Counted from the first letter of the stretch, positions 1 through 26,690 are shown. The stretch: DNA of 64,000 bases from Candidatus Poribacteria bacterium (GCA_965198235.1 OZ240248.1:4576001-4640000); one strand, 5' to 3'. Notes: generated by a model from the sequence alone, not told the origin. A program made the numbers and translations.

Positions 1-629
1 AATGGCTCATCAACTGAAGCAATCATCTTTGTTACTGCTAGTCGTTCTTCAAGCGTACGTTCATTGGCTTCTAATATATCAGGGTCAAAGGCTTGTGGCA
101 GATATTCGTGCTCAAATTGGGTGAGATGGAGATCAGATAAATCTGATATAGGAATCGGTTGAATATCGAAAAAAGCATCTTTATGCCGACGCTTTTCAGT
201 GAGAATCCTTTCATCCTGCGAGGTAGCGATACCTCGGCGAGGTCCAGTGCGAATGCAGATAGTACCCTTGAAGCGAACTGGCGGTGAGTCGGTTGGTTGC
301 ACTTTAACTACTGCCACTTCTTTATCTTGTAGCACGCGCTTTTCTACCGTCAAGGAGGGCGGCGGCACGATATTCCCGTCTGTTTTCATGTCCGCCAATT
401 GCCGAAGCAATTCGTCTGTAACTGGCAAACCCACAATAGTTTTGTCTTTTCTCACTCCAACGAAAATGAAGCCAGGTTTTTCGTGACGGGGCAAATCATT
501 GGCAAAAGCGCAGATGGCTTCCCGGATCTCTTTCGGAGCATCACCAGACAAAGATTCCTTGAACTCGATGCGATCAGATTCATCAGCGTCAATGATTTGT
601 AGCAACTCTACATCTGTAAATTGTCGCAT
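1..629 (-). CDS. AlbA_2/Schlafen-like DNA-binding domain protein, 5' part only (runs off window start)
   Basis: Absent from the ORF track. Manual minus-strand translation from ATG 629 gives MRQFTDVELLQIIDADESDRIEFKESLSGDAPKEIREAICAFANDLPRHEKPGFIFVGV..., with the E-x(3)-IEFK / ICAFAN / G-x-IFVGV signature; open to the window edge. Confidence 0.8.
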   Translation of the reverse strand, partial: MRQFTDVELLQIIDADESDRIEFKESLSGDAPKEIREAICAFANDLPRHEKPGFIFVGVRKDKTIVGLPVTDELLRQLADMKTDGNIVPPPSLTVEKRVLQDKEVAVVKVQPTDSPPVRFKGTICIRTGPRRGIATSQDERILTEKRRHKDAFFDIQPIPISDLSDLHLTQFEHEYLPQAFDPDILEANERTLEERLAVTKMIASVDEP

Positions 630-701
630 TTTGATTCCCGTCGTTTTGATGCTTGTTAGCCATTGTATTTTCCATAACAACCAATTATCGTGGATACGAC
701 A

Positions 702-753: not shown

Positions 754-2445
754 TCAATATAGCACATGCACTCGATTCTTTCCACGGACGGTTTCGTCTG
801 ACATCGCGATCGGGACCTCAACGACAACGATCAGCGCGCCCTCCGTACTTATCGCGAGTGTGTCGTAGGGAAGCTGCCCCTCTGTGCGGTAGGTGTACAG
901 ATACTTCGCCAAGCCGTTACCCTCTGCTGTCAGATCAAACACTGACACCCCATGGAGGCTCTCATTCGGGTCTTGTGCTCGCTTGGAAACCGACAGTACG
1001 GCATAACGATCCTCCGCGTCAATGCGTAAACCTTGTGGCATATTCTCAAGTTTCCACTGCCAGATTTTTTCGCCACGCCACGAATAGGCGAACAGTGTCA
1101 TCCCGTTGGGATGTCCTGCTGAGGGCTTTTGTGCGCCTTTCCGGAGATGATACGGGATGTACGTGTCCCCTGTAACGAAGAGTGCTGCGGCATCCGTCGC
1201 GCCGATCATGCCAGTAGTTGCGATGATAGGGATGCCACTTACCTCCAGCGGAGTCGCCAGGTTTTCCTGCCATATCGGTTCCGCCTGATTCACATCAAAG
1301 ATGAATGCGCGTCCATCGTCCGTTGTCACGTTGATGAACTTACCATCGGGAGACATGCTGACCCCTCGCCAGAAGGTGACTTGCGGGAAATACTCGCGCA
1401 GTGGTTGAATATCCATGTGCCACTTTTCTGTTCCATCTTCTGCGTTGAGAACAGAGAGCTTTCCATTGCCAGCATCGTTTTCATCCGTTGCACTTCCTTG
1501 CAGGTTATGCCCACTATCTGTTAGAAGCGCGAGTGTTTTTCCATCAGCACTTACGTCAAACCAGCGCATCACCTTCGGCACCGCGCCCTCACGAGTCCAT
1601 TTCCAGATAACATTTCCCGTTTTTCCATTGAATCTATAGAGTTGGGATTTCTTAAGTGGCGTGTTATCCTCTGTCCACGAGTGCACGCTCGCCACTAAAA
1701 GGTCTCCGTTCGCCAACGTTCGCATACACGATGGACCGGGGTAGCTTACCCACGCGTAGACGCTATCGGGATTACTCAGCGTAGAGGTTTCAATATCATC
1801 GGCGGTGCGATACTTCCAACGAAGTGTCGGTTTATCGGTTGTCAGGTCGTAGCAGTAGATAAATCCATCTGCCGCTTGTTCGCCAATATAGAGTTGCGTA
1901 TTACCGCGACTGAACGCCATCTGCTTCACGTAGCCTTCCGAGATACGAGTTTTCCAGAGAATTTCACCTGTCAACGGTTGGAGTACCGCGAGATGTCCAC
2001 TGTCGGTTGCAATCGCTAATTTAGGCGTATTTCCATGCCCTAAGGCAAGTGCTGTGGGTTTCGCGGGCTGACGAAGGTTTTCCATCAACGACAAAAGCCC
2101 ATCTAACTCAACGGTCCGGATGAGATACGGCTCAGGCTTCAGCGGTGAAGTCGCTGTCGTTTCGCTATCATTCAAGTGAAATTGGTAATTTTGGTTCGGT
2201 TGCCATGCAAATTGGAACAAAACGCGATTTGCATCAAGCCTTTGGATTGCGGGTATTTCGGTTAATTCGTGCGTTGTGCCGCTCGTCTCGAATGCAATGT
2301 TGATTTCGCCTGCAACGTCGTTTTTGTGTTTCGTTTCAAACACTACGCCTGTCCGGACCCAAGTGACGTTCATATCTGCCGTCGTGACGTTAAGCGGTAA
2401 GGTGATGAGCAGCCAAAGTAGACTCAAGAATTGAATTCTCTTCAT
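754..2445 (-). CDS. Secreted PQQ-like beta-propeller repeat protein (third gene of the B12-riboswitch operon)
   Basis: Signal peptide MKRIQFLSLLWLLITLP; repeated blade motifs TGEILWK, TGNVIWKW, DGTEKWH, GEKIWQW, SPDGK. Confidence 0.7.
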   Translation of the reverse strand: MKRIQFLSLLWLLITLPLNVTTADMNVTWVRTGVVFETKHKNDVAGEINIAFETSGTTHELTEIPAIQRLDANRVLFQFAWQPNQNYQFHLNDSETTATSPLKPEPYLIRTVELDGLLSLMENLRQPAKPTALALGHGNTPKLAIATDSGHLAVLQPLTGEILWKTRISEGYVKQMAFSRGNTQLYIGEQAADGFIYCYDLTTDKPTLRWKYRTADDIETSTLSNPDSVYAWVSYPGPSCMRTLANGDLLVASVHSWTEDNTPLKKSQLYRFNGKTGNVIWKWTREGAVPKVMRWFDVSADGKTLALLTDSGHNLQGSATDENDAGNGKLSVLNAEDGTEKWHMDIQPLREYFPQVTFWRGVSMSPDGKFINVTTDDGRAFIFDVNQAEPIWQENLATPLEVSGIPIIATTGMIGATDAAALFVTGDTYIPYHLRKGAQKPSAGHPNGMTLFAYSWRGEKIWQWKLENMPQGLRIDAEDRYAVLSVSKRAQDPNESLHGVSVFDLTAEGNGLAKYLYTYRTEGQLPYDTLAISTEGALIVVVEVPIAMSDETVRGKNRVHVLY

Positions 2446-2540
2446 TCTGATATTCCTTGTGTTTGTATTGTAAGTTTTCTGCGTTGTCTAAATCACGGAT
2501 TTTGTGTATCGCCGATGTAGTTGAAGACAGGGACGATGGT

Positions 2541-4514
2541 TTAATCTGCCACGCGCCATAAACCTCTCCCCAACCGCGCACCGAGAAGTACGCCGATAAA
2601 TGTATAGATGAACCCCTCTATCAAAATTCGGAGAACGATATACCAATCGGCGTAGAAAAGCCGATAGAACAGTATAGAAAGTTGAAAATCGACATAAACG
2701 GAGAGCGCGTCGCAGATGCCCAATACGACTGCCCACGCCAGTAAGCTGCGACTCCGCACCAGTAAGAATCCTGTTTCCAGTAAGAGTACACTTGTGCCGG
2801 TGTAGACGATCGCCATCGGTGTGAAAAGCCCGAACGTTACGCCTCCCAAAAGCAAACGTACCGCAGAAACAAGCAAGATTACGCCACTCCCTTTCGCGCG
2901 TTTTTGATTGGTAGCCTCCGCGTTTCTTGGATCTCCGCCGATGTAAATAAGTAACGCTGTCAGCAAGGCGTAGTAGAGCGTCTCGTTGATTAAGCCAGTC
3001 AGCAATACAGAGACCGGACCTAAGAGGGCACGGACTAAATTAAGAAACAATGTTGATGGAACCATCACTGCCACAAAAACCGTTGTGCTGAACAGGGCAA
3101 TCACAATTAGATGTTTCGTTGTGAAACCTGCGAAAAGTCGCTCGTGGAACCGCAGGACAATTGCGAAACCGATGCAACTGCTGATGATTGCTAATAGACT
3201 CACGAGCAATGCTTGTTGATTTGGAACGCCCAGGTGCAACGGACGTTGTTGGCGAAGAATCGTCGCGTCACTTCCCCAAACCTTTACCGTAATGTCCCGT
3301 TGGTATTCTCCAGGGATTGCCTGTTCTGGCTTACCTTGCTTTAAATATATCGGGTGAAAATAGATAGGCAAAGGAATTTCTGTAACCGTGCCACCCGGCA
3401 GGCTCGCAAACGCTACGCTTCGATTCGTCCCCCCGTTCGTTGTCTCTGGAGGTGCGAGAAAGGGGATAGTTGTGGGAGGGCTTTGTAAGCCCGATTTCAT
3501 ATCCGTGTTGGTTGATGACACAACCACATGGATCGTTTCTTTACCTTGGTTGCGGAGTTGGACTGTCTGATAAGTTGTGGGCTCGAATGCATTGGTCTGT
3601 GGCGTTCGGAGCCAACTGAATAACGGTCGTGGGTAGTAGATGGTATCCTCTCGCTGCTTCGGGTCCGCCGTACCCGTTGCGTCTGTAGGCATCTGAATTG
3701 ATTCTATGGAGAGGTGTTCAGCGATCTCAGAGATAGTTGCTATCCGCAGTTGCACGGTTGCTTGTTGTTCCCATGCCTGCCCTGCATCTGTTGTGAAGCG
3801 GATAATCCCTGAAATCTCCTGTGTGTCCGATCGGTTTGCTATGGATGTTTTCAAAACTAATTCACGGTACCACACCTCCGATGCGATACCAAGTCTACTG
3901 GTGGTAGAGAGGCAAGTTCTCGCATCCATTGTTTCACTCTTCCAATCTGCTGGAAAGCGGACCGCTGTTACGGTTGATGGTAGACAAAGTTCCAAATCAA
4001 AGGTCGTTGGTACATTCCCGTTTGTAACGAGGACCATAGCAGTCATTTCACTTTCATGCAAAACAAGTGCTTTCTGATCGTTTCCTGATGCATTTCCTAA
4101 ATCCGATTCAATTGCGGCACCATAGGGAATAGCGATCTCTAAATTCCCCTGTGTGTATGTCCGAGGCGCGGTCACGCTTTGAACGGTAACATTCCCGGTG
4201 GTTAAGGTCGCCTCAAACCTATAGGTCTCCCCTTCGTCCCATTCAAAATAAAGGGATTCTGTCTGACGGGGTGGCACAGGAAAGTTGAGTTGTGCGACCA
4301 TCACATCATCAAGATTAAAGGCACTTAGGTGTCGTATCGGTACTGTCGTTCCAAATTGCACCTTTGCCCCCAATGAAAAAAACGTCACCTGCCATGAGAT
4401 CGGCTCTTCTTTGGGGGTTGAGGCGCAACTAAGCAAAGAAACGAGCAGTGGCAAGACCCATAAGACCTGCTCTATTGTAGATTGATATGGTGTTCGATTC
4501 AGAGCGTGTGTCAT
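2541..4514 (-). CDS. Large exported domain fused to a C-terminal ~6-7 TM domain resembling an ECF-type S component
   Basis: Lipobox-like LLSC near the N-terminus, ~400 aa soluble beta-rich region, then a hydrophobic domain starting FTTKHLIVIALF (S-component-like first helix) and ending GVLLGARLG. Confidence 0.55.
   Translation of the reverse strand: MTHALNRTPYQSTIEQVLWVLPLLVSLLSCASTPKEEPISWQVTFFSLGAKVQFGTTVPIRHLSAFNLDDVMVAQLNFPVPPRQTESLYFEWDEGETYRFEATLTTGNVTVQSVTAPRTYTQGNLEIAIPYGAAIESDLGNASGNDQKALVLHESEMTAMVLVTNGNVPTTFDLELCLPSTVTAVRFPADWKSETMDARTCLSTTSRLGIASEVWYRELVLKTSIANRSDTQEISGIIRFTTDAGQAWEQQATVQLRIATISEIAEHLSIESIQMPTDATGTADPKQREDTIYYPRPLFSWLRTPQTNAFEPTTYQTVQLRNQGKETIHVVVSSTNTDMKSGLQSPPTTIPFLAPPETTNGGTNRSVAFASLPGGTVTEIPLPIYFHPIYLKQGKPEQAIPGEYQRDITVKVWGSDATILRQQRPLHLGVPNQQALLVSLLAIISSCIGFAIVLRFHERLFAGFTTKHLIVIALFSTTVFVAVMVPSTLFLNLVRALLGPVSVLLTGLINETLYYALLTALLIYIGGDPRNAEATNQKRAKGSGVILLVSAVRLLLGGVTFGLFTPMAIVYTGTSVLLLETGFLLVRSRSLLAWAVVLGICDALSVYVDFQLSILFYRLFYADWYIVLRILIEGFIYTFIGVLLGARLGRGLWRVAD
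3468..3498. repeat. 31-nt REP-like palindrome, copy 1 (inside a CDS)
   Basis: AGTTGTGGGAGGGCTTTGTAAGCCCGATTTC, identical to 6703-6733; internal hairpin GGGCTT-TGT-AAGCCC. Confidence 0.8.
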
Positions 4515-4611
4515 GCAATTTCATAAAAGGACTGAATTATTGCGAATACATGGAACTTGTAAAAGGCGAGATGTTTTTGCTGGAGTGTTTCCCTCGCCTA
4601 TGAATGCTAAG

Positions 4612-5346
4612 TTAGAGCCCATGACCGATCAGCACCAGATCAAGGATATTAACCACTTTGTCTCCATTGACATCGGCAAGTATTCCGGCACCCTCGTCAC
4701 CGAGAAAACGACCTGCGATTATCATATCTTTCATGTTGACGAACCCGTCATTGTTGATGTCTTCGCGTCGCGGGATAATCCTTGCAAACCCCAAAATAGA
4801 GCCGGCGGGTCCAACGTGATAGGTTCGCAGGAGAGATGCATCTGCTACGTCCATGACGTGAACGAAATCCTGTCCGCCGCCCGACCAGTCGGGTTGGGTG
4901 ATATAGAGATTTCCATCTGGGGCAAAAGTCAGTCCTCCACTGACAGGAGTATCTGCATCGTTACTGAAATTAGCGATCGTATCGTCTTTATCCCGAATCC
5001 AGTCTCGCGCTGCGATATCATAGACAAGCAACCCAGGATTTTGCCAACTGCCTTGGATAAACAACTGTTTTTCTGAGCTGAAATGGAGTATTTCATTGTC
5101 AACAGCCCGTCTCTCATTCGATTCCTCCAGATTGATGAGTGAGAGTGAAGCGGTGATGCCCAAGTCGGGTTGTGTCAGGGCATTTATGACGACTGTTAGG
5201 TTCTGAACCTCTGTCTGTCCAAAAGCAGGACTAACGAGGTGTGTCAAAAGGATTGCCCCTACTATTAGGAACGAATAACATGAGAAGTGCCGCCGAGAGA
5301 CTTTTCTAGACGCGCTTGCAAGCGGTGCCGCTACAACTTTGTTCAT
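4612..5346 (-). CDS. Secreted protein with partial beta-propeller-like blades and a C-terminal dockerin type I-like domain
   Basis: ATG 5346 preceded by GGAGG (the ORF-track start 5544 lies in the riboswitch leader); signal peptide ending SPAFG; twin repeats EDINNDGFVNMKD and ADVNGDKVVNILD. Confidence 0.7.
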   Translation of the reverse strand: MNKVVAAPLASASRKVSRRHFSCYSFLIVGAILLTHLVSPAFGQTEVQNLTVVINALTQPDLGITASLSLINLEESNERRAVDNEILHFSSEKQLFIQGSWQNPGLLVYDIAARDWIRDKDDTIANFSNDADTPVSGGLTFAPDGNLYITQPDWSGGGQDFVHVMDVADASLLRTYHVGPAGSILGFARIIPRREDINNDGFVNMKDMIIAGRFLGDEGAGILADVNGDKVVNILDLVLIGHGL

Positions 5347-5366
5347 TAAAACCTCCGTAATGAAAC

Positions 5367-5399
5367 AAAAAACCCCTGCTTTCATCGGAAAGACAGGGG
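5367..5399 (-). terminator. Intrinsic terminator, expression platform of the cobalamin riboswitch
   Basis: Minus strand CCCCTG(T)CTTTC-CGAT-GAAAGCAGGGG-TTTTTT, just upstream of the RBS of the first operon gene. Confidence 0.8.
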
Positions 5400-5545
5400 A
5401 GGAAGCGGCACTCTGTGTGAGGCGTATCCTGTAAGTGTGTAGAAGAATTTCATACCTTATATCGGTATTTCTTTTTTCATCTGATCTGACAGGATACTGT
5501 GCTCTGTTCCACCGCTTTCCCGCGAAAGCAGATGCGTGAAACATG

Positions 5546-5753
5546 ATTCAGGCAGGTCTCCTGACTTCCGATCATTTAGCGTAGTTACAAGCCAAAACTC
5601 GCACTACAGAGTTCCGCTGAACCTTCCCATCAGTTATCTGACAGTGGTTTTTCAACGGATAATTGCCTTTGATAGAGGCTGATCGTTCACAGTGGCGGGG
5701 CCGTGGCGGATTCTCACCGCGCTTCCCTATTCTCCGTAATTCGGCACCTGAAC
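5546..5753 (-). ncRNA. Cobalamin (B12) riboswitch
   Basis: Minus strand TTCAGGTGCC...AATAGGGAAGCGCGGTGAGAATCCGCCACGGCCCCGCCACTGTGA...CCACTG...GGGAAGG...GAAGTCAGGAGACCTGCCTGAA: core motifs and B12 box present. Confidence 0.95.
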
Positions 5754-5781
5754 CGTTAGTTTATTCAATTGTAATACATAT

Positions 5782-5810
5782 ATTATATCACGTTGCACTA
5801 TCTTTTGCAA
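5782..5810 (-). promoter_or_regulatory. sigma70 promoter of the riboswitch operon
   Basis: TTGCAA-17 nt-TATAAT with extended -10 TG. Confidence 0.7.
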
Positions 5811-26616: not shown

Positions 26617-26690
26617 TCGGGGCGACTGGATTCGAACCAGCGACCTCTTGAACCCCATTCAAGCGCGCTTCCGGGCTGCGCCACGCCCCG
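26617..26690 (-). tRNA. tRNA-Pro(GGG), CCA not encoded
   Basis: CGGGGCGTGGCGCAGCCCGGAAGCGCGCTTGAATGGGGTTCAAGAGGTCGCTGGTTCGAATCCAGTCGCCCCGA folds as a cloverleaf with anticodon GGG. Confidence 0.96.

Follow-up and report, generated by a model that had tools for sequence, protein, structure and literature searches.

A cobalamin-riboswitch operon of Poribacteria encoding a predicted ECF S component with an extracytoplasmic arm, a candidate cobamide importer

What does a cobalamin riboswitch control when the genes behind it include no recognised gene of vitamin B12 uptake or use? The question is raised by an operon at positions 5,810 to 754, on the minus strand, of a 64,000-nt stretch of DNA from a Candidatus Poribacteria bacterium (GCA_965198235.1 OZ240248.1:4576001-4640000; hereafter the window, G000:C1:4576001-4640000), whose genome G000 consists of two contigs, amounts to 5.17 Mb and is estimated to be 96.3% complete. 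An earlier note on this DNA had described a promoter, B12 riboswitch and terminator followed by three uncharacterised envelope genes, namely a secreted dockerin-bearing protein (gene 1), a 657-residue protein joining an exported and a membrane domain (gene 2) and a secreted PQQ-like propeller (gene 3), and had proposed a system for the uptake of B12 or cobalt. Open reading frames (ORFs), Pfam matches, to which NCBIfam contributed none further, and structural models bear out this layout, and within the operon reveal no btuB, btuF, btuC, btuD, ecfA, ecfT or cobalamin-enzyme gene, as the note had also stated. We consider it likely that the operon serves cobamide import through an energy-coupling factor (ECF) transporter: an intact gene 1 protein would act as trap, the gene 2 and gene 3 proteins as receiver, and the S-component domain of gene 2 as the entry to the membrane, with EcfT and a fused EcfAA' as the drive and with transcription terminated by B12.

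The gene 2 protein and its predicted propeller partner

Gene 2 (4514-2541; this and all other features of the operon lie on the minus strand) was delineated with the help of predicted structures. Its residues 1-30 (4425-4514) comprise a signal helix, spanning residues 9-29 in the model, that ends in LLSC, which resembles a lipobox; G-C occupies this position in the family consensus, and the protein is probably a lipoprotein. Residues 31-432 (3219-4424) are modelled as four extracytoplasmic beta-sandwich domains of the immunoglobulin (Ig)-like kind, residues 433-462 (3129-3218) as an extra membrane helix, and residues 463-657 with the stop codon (2541-3128) as an ECF S-component domain. At E values of 0.001 or below the family has 346 cluster representatives (50% identity), most of which cover both halves of the protein. 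Its most conserved region is the S domain, with invariant Glu580, Arg618 and Trp624 and an LYRL.FADWY motif.

The assignment of the membrane domain comes from structural comparison. An AlphaFold2 model of the full-length protein, computed from a 61-sequence alignment, reached a predicted local distance difference test (pLDDT) score of 89 and a predicted TM score (pTM) of 0.80, placed the four beta-sandwich domains at residues ~41-430, and in Foldseek returned tandem-Ig proteins only (integrins, alpha-2-macroglobulins). Residues 430-657 were therefore folded separately (pLDDT 93.6). Foldseek with this C-domain model gave one clear match, PDB entry 5edl (E 8.9e-3, TM 0.51/0.57, 195 columns), the runner-up being at E 0.39 and TM 0.23. 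The entry is titled 'S-component of ECF transporter' and no more; we take it to be YkoE of Bacillus subtilis. When the C-domain was compared with 48,161 chains by VIA-align, ECF S components filled all top 15 rows, with 5edl again the best (Z 13.1, rmsd 3.1, 170 residues aligned, 18% identity), followed by RibU, ThiT, BioY, NikM (4m5c, Z 10.2), CbiM (5x3x, Z 8.9), PanT and FolT. Of the B12 carriers, BtuM was among the top 15 (Z 8.5) and CbrT ranked 19th (Z 6.3). Helical bundles can reach Z values of ~13 by chance, but the assignment stands because the matches belong to one family, extend over the whole domain and lie above the unrelated rows. In these models, then, the membrane domain of gene 2 is a six-helix ECF S-component fold, in agreement with the ECF-S-like domain of the earlier note. 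The S-component alignments start past the extra helix, at residue 34 of the C-domain model. The helix suits the topology, in that it would lead from the arm in the periplasm to the cytoplasmic side, where a canonical S domain begins. A search of the ESM Atlas with the gene 2 ectodomain returned no score above 0.77.

Gene 3 (2445-754; 563 residues) encodes a secreted PQQ_2/BamB-like beta-propeller (PQQ_2, E 5e-11), and its orthologues travel with gene 2 across lineages. Profile-profile comparison (hhalign 95.8%, E 8e-9, 115 columns) relates the N-terminal beta-sandwich of gene 3 (~110 residues) to the first Ig-like domain of gene 2, a shared domain that is visible by this method only, the BLASTP match of the gene 2 first domain to gene 3 being not significant (E 0.68). 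The same gene 3 domain also surfaced as secondary matches near gene 2 in the genome-wide gene 2 search. When the gene 2 ectodomain (residues 31-432) was modelled together with gene 3 (residues 24-563), the interface score ipSAE had a median of 0.86, compared with 0.00 for the best of three controls; a mark of 0.86 is reached by 58 of 80 solved complexes and by two of 110 mismatched pairs, a calibration that holds roughly here, custom alignments having been used. The runs share at least 61% of their contacts, with a partner pLDDT of at least 82. Some 200 predicted contacts with gene 3 are spread over all four Ig-like domains, and the predicted interface places gene 2 residues 48-91, 209-218 and 351-416 against gene 3 residues 313-522. 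These models support gene 3 as a docking partner of the gene 2 ectodomain. As to its own function, a gene 3 profile searched against the PDB gave no clue, as it retrieved nothing beyond designed 'Cake' proteins and propellers of the generic PQQ/WD40 kind. Gene 3 does not resemble BtuG, which the earlier note had named among known B12 binders; the BtuG-like propeller of the operon is the intact gene 1 of relatives (see below).

Riboswitch linkage and the ECF module encoded elsewhere

The operon is headed by a cobalamin riboswitch aptamer (5766-5534), which matches the full Rfam Cobalamin model RF00174 (positions 1-189) at 93.4 bits and E 6e-22, against a gathering score of 31.5 bits, and is the sole match to that model found in the whole 5.17 Mb genome. 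Between the aptamer and the start codon of gene 1 lies an intrinsic terminator (5399-5367), made of an 11-bp stem with one bulge, a CGAU loop and U6, which makes this region a candidate switch of the downstream genes. The hairpin is present in the minimum-free-energy fold of 5545-5347 (z = -3.5), and was missed by a simple terminator scan because of the bulge in its stem. A sigma-70-like promoter, TTGCAA-17 nt-TATAAT (5810-5782; 10/12 consensus positions), ends 16 nt upstream of the aptamer. It is this position alone that lends weight to the promoter call, since a consensus match of this quality is common by chance (11 such sites in the region, 6.8 ± 2.5 in shuffles). The ribosome-binding site GGAGG precedes the ATG of gene 1 at 5346; a longer ORF (5544-4612) was rejected as gene 1 because it runs into the aptamer. 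Another promoter-like site (TTTACA-16 nt-AATAAT, 10/12; 4536-4563, minus strand) is found inside the 97-nt gap between genes 1 and 2, and could provide riboswitch-independent expression of genes 2 and 3. Contigs from sponge metatranscriptomes cover the aptamer and the operon genes. In RNA run X2 their depth was 182 at the aptamer, 27 at gene 1 and ~6 at gene 2, a pattern that resembles attenuation, but contig depths cannot rank genes. Stretches of the operon without contig cover in runs X2 and X5 carry no evidential weight.

The association of riboswitch and gene 2 extends through the order to which this bacterium belongs. Among 151 sampled genomes of the phylum 138 carry gene 2; split by family, the window's order has 99/99, 10/10, 25/26 and 3/4 in its four families, and the remaining five have none (0/11). 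RF00174 was detected in 146 of 150 sampled genomes, and almost all genomes of the order carry exactly one copy. Linkage could be evaluated in 126 of the 138 gene 2 genomes (of the other 12, ten have riboswitch coordinates that were not listed, G107 has no match and G150 was outside the riboswitch sample). In 121 of the 126 the riboswitch precedes gene 2 on the same strand by a distance of at most 3.6 kb (median 1,674 nt); in three more it lies 5.9, 8.4 or 17.7 kb upstream, and in two it is unlinked. The best 80 genome loci for gene 2 are all from Poribacteria. By tblastn, 78 of them have gene 1 and 78 have gene 3, with the gene order conserved; three of the four misses are at contig ends, and the remaining locus (L055) is without gene 3. 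A B12 box was seen in 76 of the 80, and all six Poribacteria loci submitted to Rfam, L070 included, were positive. The genus g7 departs from the common layout in having a riboswitch 166-403 nt directly before gene 2 and a second riboswitch elsewhere.

Beyond Poribacteria, members of the gene 2 family occur in Desulfarculus, Planctomycetota, metagenome-assembled genomes resembling Deferribacteres, and abundantly in human-gut metagenome contigs. A metagenome search whose alignment had as its first sequence a homologue clustering with a Desulfarculus baarsii protein returned 80 loci in 24 clusters, and ~240 further non-Poribacteria loci were counted beyond these best 80. The largest cluster has 44 contigs (L103 and 43 others), many of them labelled human-gut metagenome; at loci of the L103 type, EcfAA', EcfT and a propeller resembling gene 3 accompany the gene 2 homologue, and the fetched flank contains no riboswitch. 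Pfam annotation of the neighbours at 11 loci from nine clusters identified a gene-3-like PQQ propeller at nine, EcfT at eight, a fused double ABC (ATP-binding cassette) ATPase at six, CobN and a TonB-dependent receptor at three each, a ChlI/D-VWA protein at two, and CbiZ, BtuR/CobO and TonB at one each. From these neighbours, the gene 2 homologue outside Poribacteria appears to belong, as its S component, to a dedicated ECF transporter encoded in a neighbourhood of corrinoid-related genes. Of 26 distant loci tested with Rfam, three, from two of 22 clusters (L095; L114/L131), have an upstream cobalamin riboswitch in the same orientation, and at L114/L131 the riboswitch, a gene-1-like gene without dockerin, gene 2 and gene 3 follow one another as in Poribacteria. 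The link to B12 riboswitches that the earlier note had anticipated thus recurs in two unrelated metagenomic lineages. A strict regular expression for the B12 box had retrieved nothing from the 80 distant loci, and this was given no weight because Rfam found riboswitches in three of those loci and in L070.

The window genome has one EcfT (C1:3616612-3617544) and one fused EcfAA' ATPase (C1:3750776-3752374), the latter sharing 38.6% identity with an ATPase that neighbours a distant homologue of gene 2. The earlier note had allowed for ECF modules encoded elsewhere; both parts are indeed found at a distance here and beside gene 2 homologues in other lineages. EcfAA' begins with a 17-nt overlap of the end of a gene for a B12-binding radical S-adenosylmethionine (SAM) protein (B12-binding, Radical_SAM and DUF4070 domains), the pair occupying C1:3748810-3752374 (L164:4811-8375). 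Across the order, the radical-SAM gene is directly before EcfAA' in 29 of 30 loci and EcfT directly after it in 22 of 30, which points to an ancestral unit of B12 enzyme, EcfAA' and EcfT. In the window's genus EcfT has been moved 134 kb from EcfAA', and in the window genome it stands alone between a MazF-like toxin gene and a gene with a molybdopterin-binding domain (MoCF_biosynth). A type ISP restriction-modification enzyme gene and then the MazF/PemK-like toxin gene adjoin it at C1:3612475-3616533 (L163:1476-5534), and these surroundings may be a mobile or defence gene region, which would explain the move of EcfT away from EcfAA'. EcfT is present in 137 of the 138 sampled gene 2 genomes, as a single match in all but one. 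No S component of the BioY, CbiM or ECF_trnsprt families was found in the window genome, leaving gene 2 as the sole S component among the families searched. Elsewhere in the genus, an EcfAA' match (G016:C9:3775-5340; L170) reads through one TGA, one TAG and one TAA, and may be a pseudogene or contain sequencing errors at these stops.

The gene content of the genome suggests why such a system would be needed. Six B12-binding-domain matches were recorded, one of them in a 1230-residue ORF taken to be MetH, and a PduO-type adenosyltransferase is present. CbiC, CobS and CbiB were not found in the genome, nor were CobN, CbiZ and BtuR in a tblastn search of it. A BtuF-type binding protein (Peripla_BP_2) gave no match in the genome, and matches to FecCD, the BtuC type, are weak (28.5 and 21.5 bits). 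Within the limits of a 96.3%-complete genome, the organism, a sponge symbiont, would appear to use B12 while being able neither to make nor to finish a cobamide, and to be without the classical importer.

Gene 1, a propeller-dockerin protein with an internal deletion in the window

Gene 1 (5346-4612; 244 residues) has the signal peptide and dockerin that the earlier note had ascribed to it, and an internal deletion that the note had overlooked. The signal peptide is without a lipobox cysteine, and the C-terminal dockerin is of type I (Dockerin_1, PF00404; E 3e-5, 24.5 bits for a cut-off of 22.9). In the closest relative, L003, gene 1 encodes 451 residues, and the window copy aligns to residues 1-89 and 296-451 of it only. 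DNA alignment resolves the difference as an in-frame gap of ~621 nt (~207 codons; residues ~90-295), the missing part corresponding to most of a beta-propeller. The homologues measure 418-486 residues in all 120 listed proteins, and at least 430 where the ORF of the relatives is complete. A 942-nt contig of RNA run X2, a sponge metatranscriptome from another study, spans 4593-5534 including the deletion junction with 0 differences, and a 265-nt contig of RNA run X4 spans 4888-5152 and the same junction, also with 0 differences. As the junction recurs identically in contigs from separate RNA runs, the deletion is not an assembly error. By its sequence, the window gene 1 is an in-frame deletion remnant of a ~450-residue BtuG-like YVTN beta-propeller-dockerin protein.

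BtuG is the surface trap for B12 of Bacteroides. A profile of 14 gene 1 sequences, searched against PDB sequences, matched, after the generic YVTN propeller 1l0q, BtuG1 (8blw_B, E 7e-11), BtuG3 (8okv, E 3e-7) and BtuG2 (8bmx, E 7e-7), as well as 3dsm (E 6e-7). The entry assignments follow PMC10404256, where BtuG1 is 8blw, BtuG2 is 8bmx/8bmy and BtuG3 is 8okv/8p97. Gene 1 is classed here as BtuG-like, and not as a BtuG proper, being without a lipoprotein anchor and without an adjacent BtuB. Its connection with B12 is seen independently of gene 2 in G003, of genus g7, where the second riboswitch lies directly before a gene 1 homologue (43% identical) and away from gene 2; there gene 1 has a cobalamin riboswitch of its own.

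The dockerin raises the question of its partner. The genome has seven cohesin matches, in large proteins (586-1569 residues) and none in genes 2 or 3, together with ~10 dockerin-like matches, some of them close to cohesin genes, and on this sequence evidence possesses a cohesin-dockerin system. Because the cohesins lie outside genes 2 and 3, the dockerin probably fixes gene 1 to another surface protein. Examples of this cohesin-dockerin system are at C1:4897223-4897999, C1:4905419-4906186 and C1:4811539-4811820. A gene 2 profile against PDB sequences had produced nothing significant, its best row being the cohesin-bearing scaffoldin 2zf9 (E 0.21); the idea that an Ig-like domain of gene 2 is the cohesin for the gene 1 dockerin was dropped, since 61 family members have no Cohesin Pfam match and the seven cohesin matches of the genome lie elsewhere. 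Further features of the window are an ORF at 3-680 (minus strand), downstream of gene 3, which runs off the window edge, many relatives having a same-strand ORF of ~400 residues after gene 3, and a tRNA gene at 26617-26690 (minus strand; 58.8 bits).

Proposed function, rival explanations and known systems

The following mechanism would account for the operon. Plentiful B12 would cause the riboswitch to stop transcription at the hairpin upstream of gene 1, whereas under B12 shortage the three envelope proteins would be made. Where gene 1 is intact, its dockerin probably holds the propeller on a cohesin-bearing surface protein, so that it can capture cobamide. Within an ECF-type ABC importer, the gene 2 protein would be the S component, which determines the substrate; unusually, it would be equipped with an extra helix and with a stalk that consists of four Ig-like domains and is anchored by lipid. 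The gene 3 propeller is predicted to clasp this stalk, and we infer that the two proteins receive periplasmic cobamide and pass it to the S domain, and that EcfT and the fused EcfAA', each encoded once elsewhere in the genome, drive transport. In the window genome the importer probably works without the capture protein, as gene 1 has lost most of its propeller, and it would appear to work likewise in lineages without gene 1. What is observed or computed in this proposal is the riboswitch together with folds, homologies, gene neighbourhoods and phyletic patterns, whereas it is conjecture that cobamide is the substrate, that it is handed over in this way and that gene 2 pairs with EcfT and EcfAA'. 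The capture-and-import system of the earlier note, with an S component fused to its own extracytoplasmic domain, is thus supported by fold, neighbours and riboswitch link. A bolder version, which we put forward tentatively and with more doubt than belief, is that the operon amounts to a whole alternative B12 route in double-membraned bacteria, replacing BtuF-BtuCD and here perhaps BtuB, in which the lipid-anchored four-domain arm would take cobamide from a cohesin-docked BtuG-like trap and deliver it to the S domain.

Several observations weigh against cobamide import by these proteins. We infer cobamide as the substrate from context alone. The window gene 2 protein has no Pfam and no NCBIfam match, and hence no curated S-component family; the nearest is a weak PF09819 match (E 0.012) in two of 61 family members only. 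Its pairing with EcfT and EcfAA' is drawn from co-occurrence and from the three other S families not being found. Intact gene 1 has an NHL repeat and a DUF5074 match that at 23.6 bits stays under the curated cut-off of 27.2 ('DUF5074' turned up in the literature in unrelated contexts only), the best PDB match of the gene 1 profile is a generic YVTN S-layer propeller (1l0q, E 1.4e-13), and in the window the gene is broken. Of the 22 distant clusters, 20 have no riboswitch in the fetched flank, which extends up to 5 kb and is short in several, and CobN neighbours suit either cobalt or corrinoid uptake. The window riboswitch controls no outer-membrane receptor for B12, which leaves passage across that membrane unexplained. 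Contigs of RNA libraries, finally, can derive from DNA.

The same facts have to be set against other substrates. The operon might instead import cobalt (or nickel) ions, like the riboswitch-controlled CbiMNQO, with the ectodomain and propeller as receptors for the metal or a metallophore. Cobalt transporters are frequent targets of cobalamin riboswitches, NikM and CbiM, which are S components for metals, have the same fold as the gene 2 domain, CobN is beside homologues at three of 11 loci, and the one sequence-family hint, PF09819, bears the name 'ABC-type cobalt transport system, permease component'. Yet with no CbiC, CobS, CbiB or CobN found in the genome there would be no cobalt demand for a B12-sensing switch to serve. 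The nearest fold is moreover that of a vitamin S component (5edl) and not of CbiM or NikM, gene 1 is BtuG-like and has its own cobalamin riboswitch in G003, and the CbiZ, BtuR and TonB-dependent receptor neighbours point to corrinoids. Of the two substrates named in the earlier note, B12 is therefore favoured, and cobalt, for want of corrin synthesis genes, is quite unlikely here. The CobN neighbours, with ChlI/D-type chelatase subunits and CbiZ, a cobinamide-salvage enzyme, at distant homologues, also lend themselves to import of cobinamide, cobyrinic acid derivatives or another corrinoid precursor, or of a different tetrapyrrole such as haem, in place of complete cobamides. BtuG proteins, too, bind cobinamide, a BtuG2-Cbi structure being listed under data availability in PMC10404256. 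In the window genome, where CbiZ, CbiB and CobS were not found, an incomplete corrinoid could not be finished, the B12-dependent enzymes require the complete cofactor, and the regulator is a cobalamin riboswitch. We regard a precursor as an unlikely substrate of this operon, although it may be one in the wider gene 2 family.

The proteins could also form a B12-regulated surface complex without transport function, for adhesion or sensing, in which the S-like domain is a mere membrane anchor. Ig-like repeats, propellers and dockerins are common in adhesins, cohesin and dockerin proteins are numerous in Poribacteria (those counted above included), and EcfT and EcfAA' lie outside the operon. A mere anchor would hardly be the most conserved part of the gene 2 family, however, and EcfT is directly beside the gene 2 homologue at eight of 11 distant loci, while in the window genome EcfT and EcfAA' have no other S component among the three families searched. 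This explanation seems to us very improbable, and cobamide import is retained as the preferred one.

Full-text searches of the literature retrieved no description of this system, and its proteins are labelled 'hypothetical' wherever a source names them. If cobamide import is correct, gene 2 would represent a new architectural class of ECF transporter, in which the S component bears a large arm in the periplasm and depends on a propeller protein, and would show how ECF transport can be adapted to a double-membraned cell. Sampled members of this order of Poribacteria possess B12-dependent enzymes and neither B12 synthesis genes nor BtuFCD; the operon would be their missing B12 uptake route, with a bearing on vitamin exchange within sponges, and the assignment of a substrate would annotate many 'hypothetical' genes, among the 346 representatives and in human-gut metagenomes. 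Whether the capture protein is needed at all is a question that the naturally occurring deletion in gene 1 would help to answer.

With respect to known systems, we class this one as an ECF vitamin importer combined with BtuG-type capture. ECF transporters are known as importers of compact build, with a small S component that depends on no external helper. Like the group I ECF vitamin importers, to which the S component 5edl belongs, gene 2 has the six-helix S fold, and its distant homologues are found beside EcfT and a fused ATPase; the weak PF09819 matches presumably point to the family of 5edl. Unlike these importers, gene 2 is extended at the N-terminus by ~430 residues, which supply a lipoprotein signal, the four Ig-like domains and a membrane helix beyond the usual six; it also has a dedicated propeller partner and no significant sequence-family match. 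In contrast to dedicated group I modules, the S, T and AA' parts are encoded at three separate places in the window genome. ECF-CbrT (6fnp) and BtuM (8ovv) share with gene 2 the overall fold and, if our prediction holds, B12 import. Both are small proteins without an ectodomain, and both rank below the S components of other vitamins, so that no closer kinship was found. BtuM, besides, needs no ECF module and coordinates cobalt by Cys and His residues. The resemblance to BtuB-BtuG of Bacteroides concerns the intact gene 1 propeller, whose profile matches BtuG1, BtuG2 and BtuG3, which is under a cobalamin riboswitch and which would likewise be an extracellular B12 trap feeding a transporter. Unlike BtuG, gene 1 has a type I signal peptide and a dockerin in place of a lipoprotein anchor, no BtuB in its operon, a DUF5074 score below threshold and, in the window, a deleted propeller; the importer downstream would be an ECF system and not BtuFCD. 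Riboswitch control and predicted substrate are finally shared with BtuB-BtuF-BtuCD, none of whose parts is in the operon; in the genome no BtuF-type protein was found, and FecCD matches are weak.

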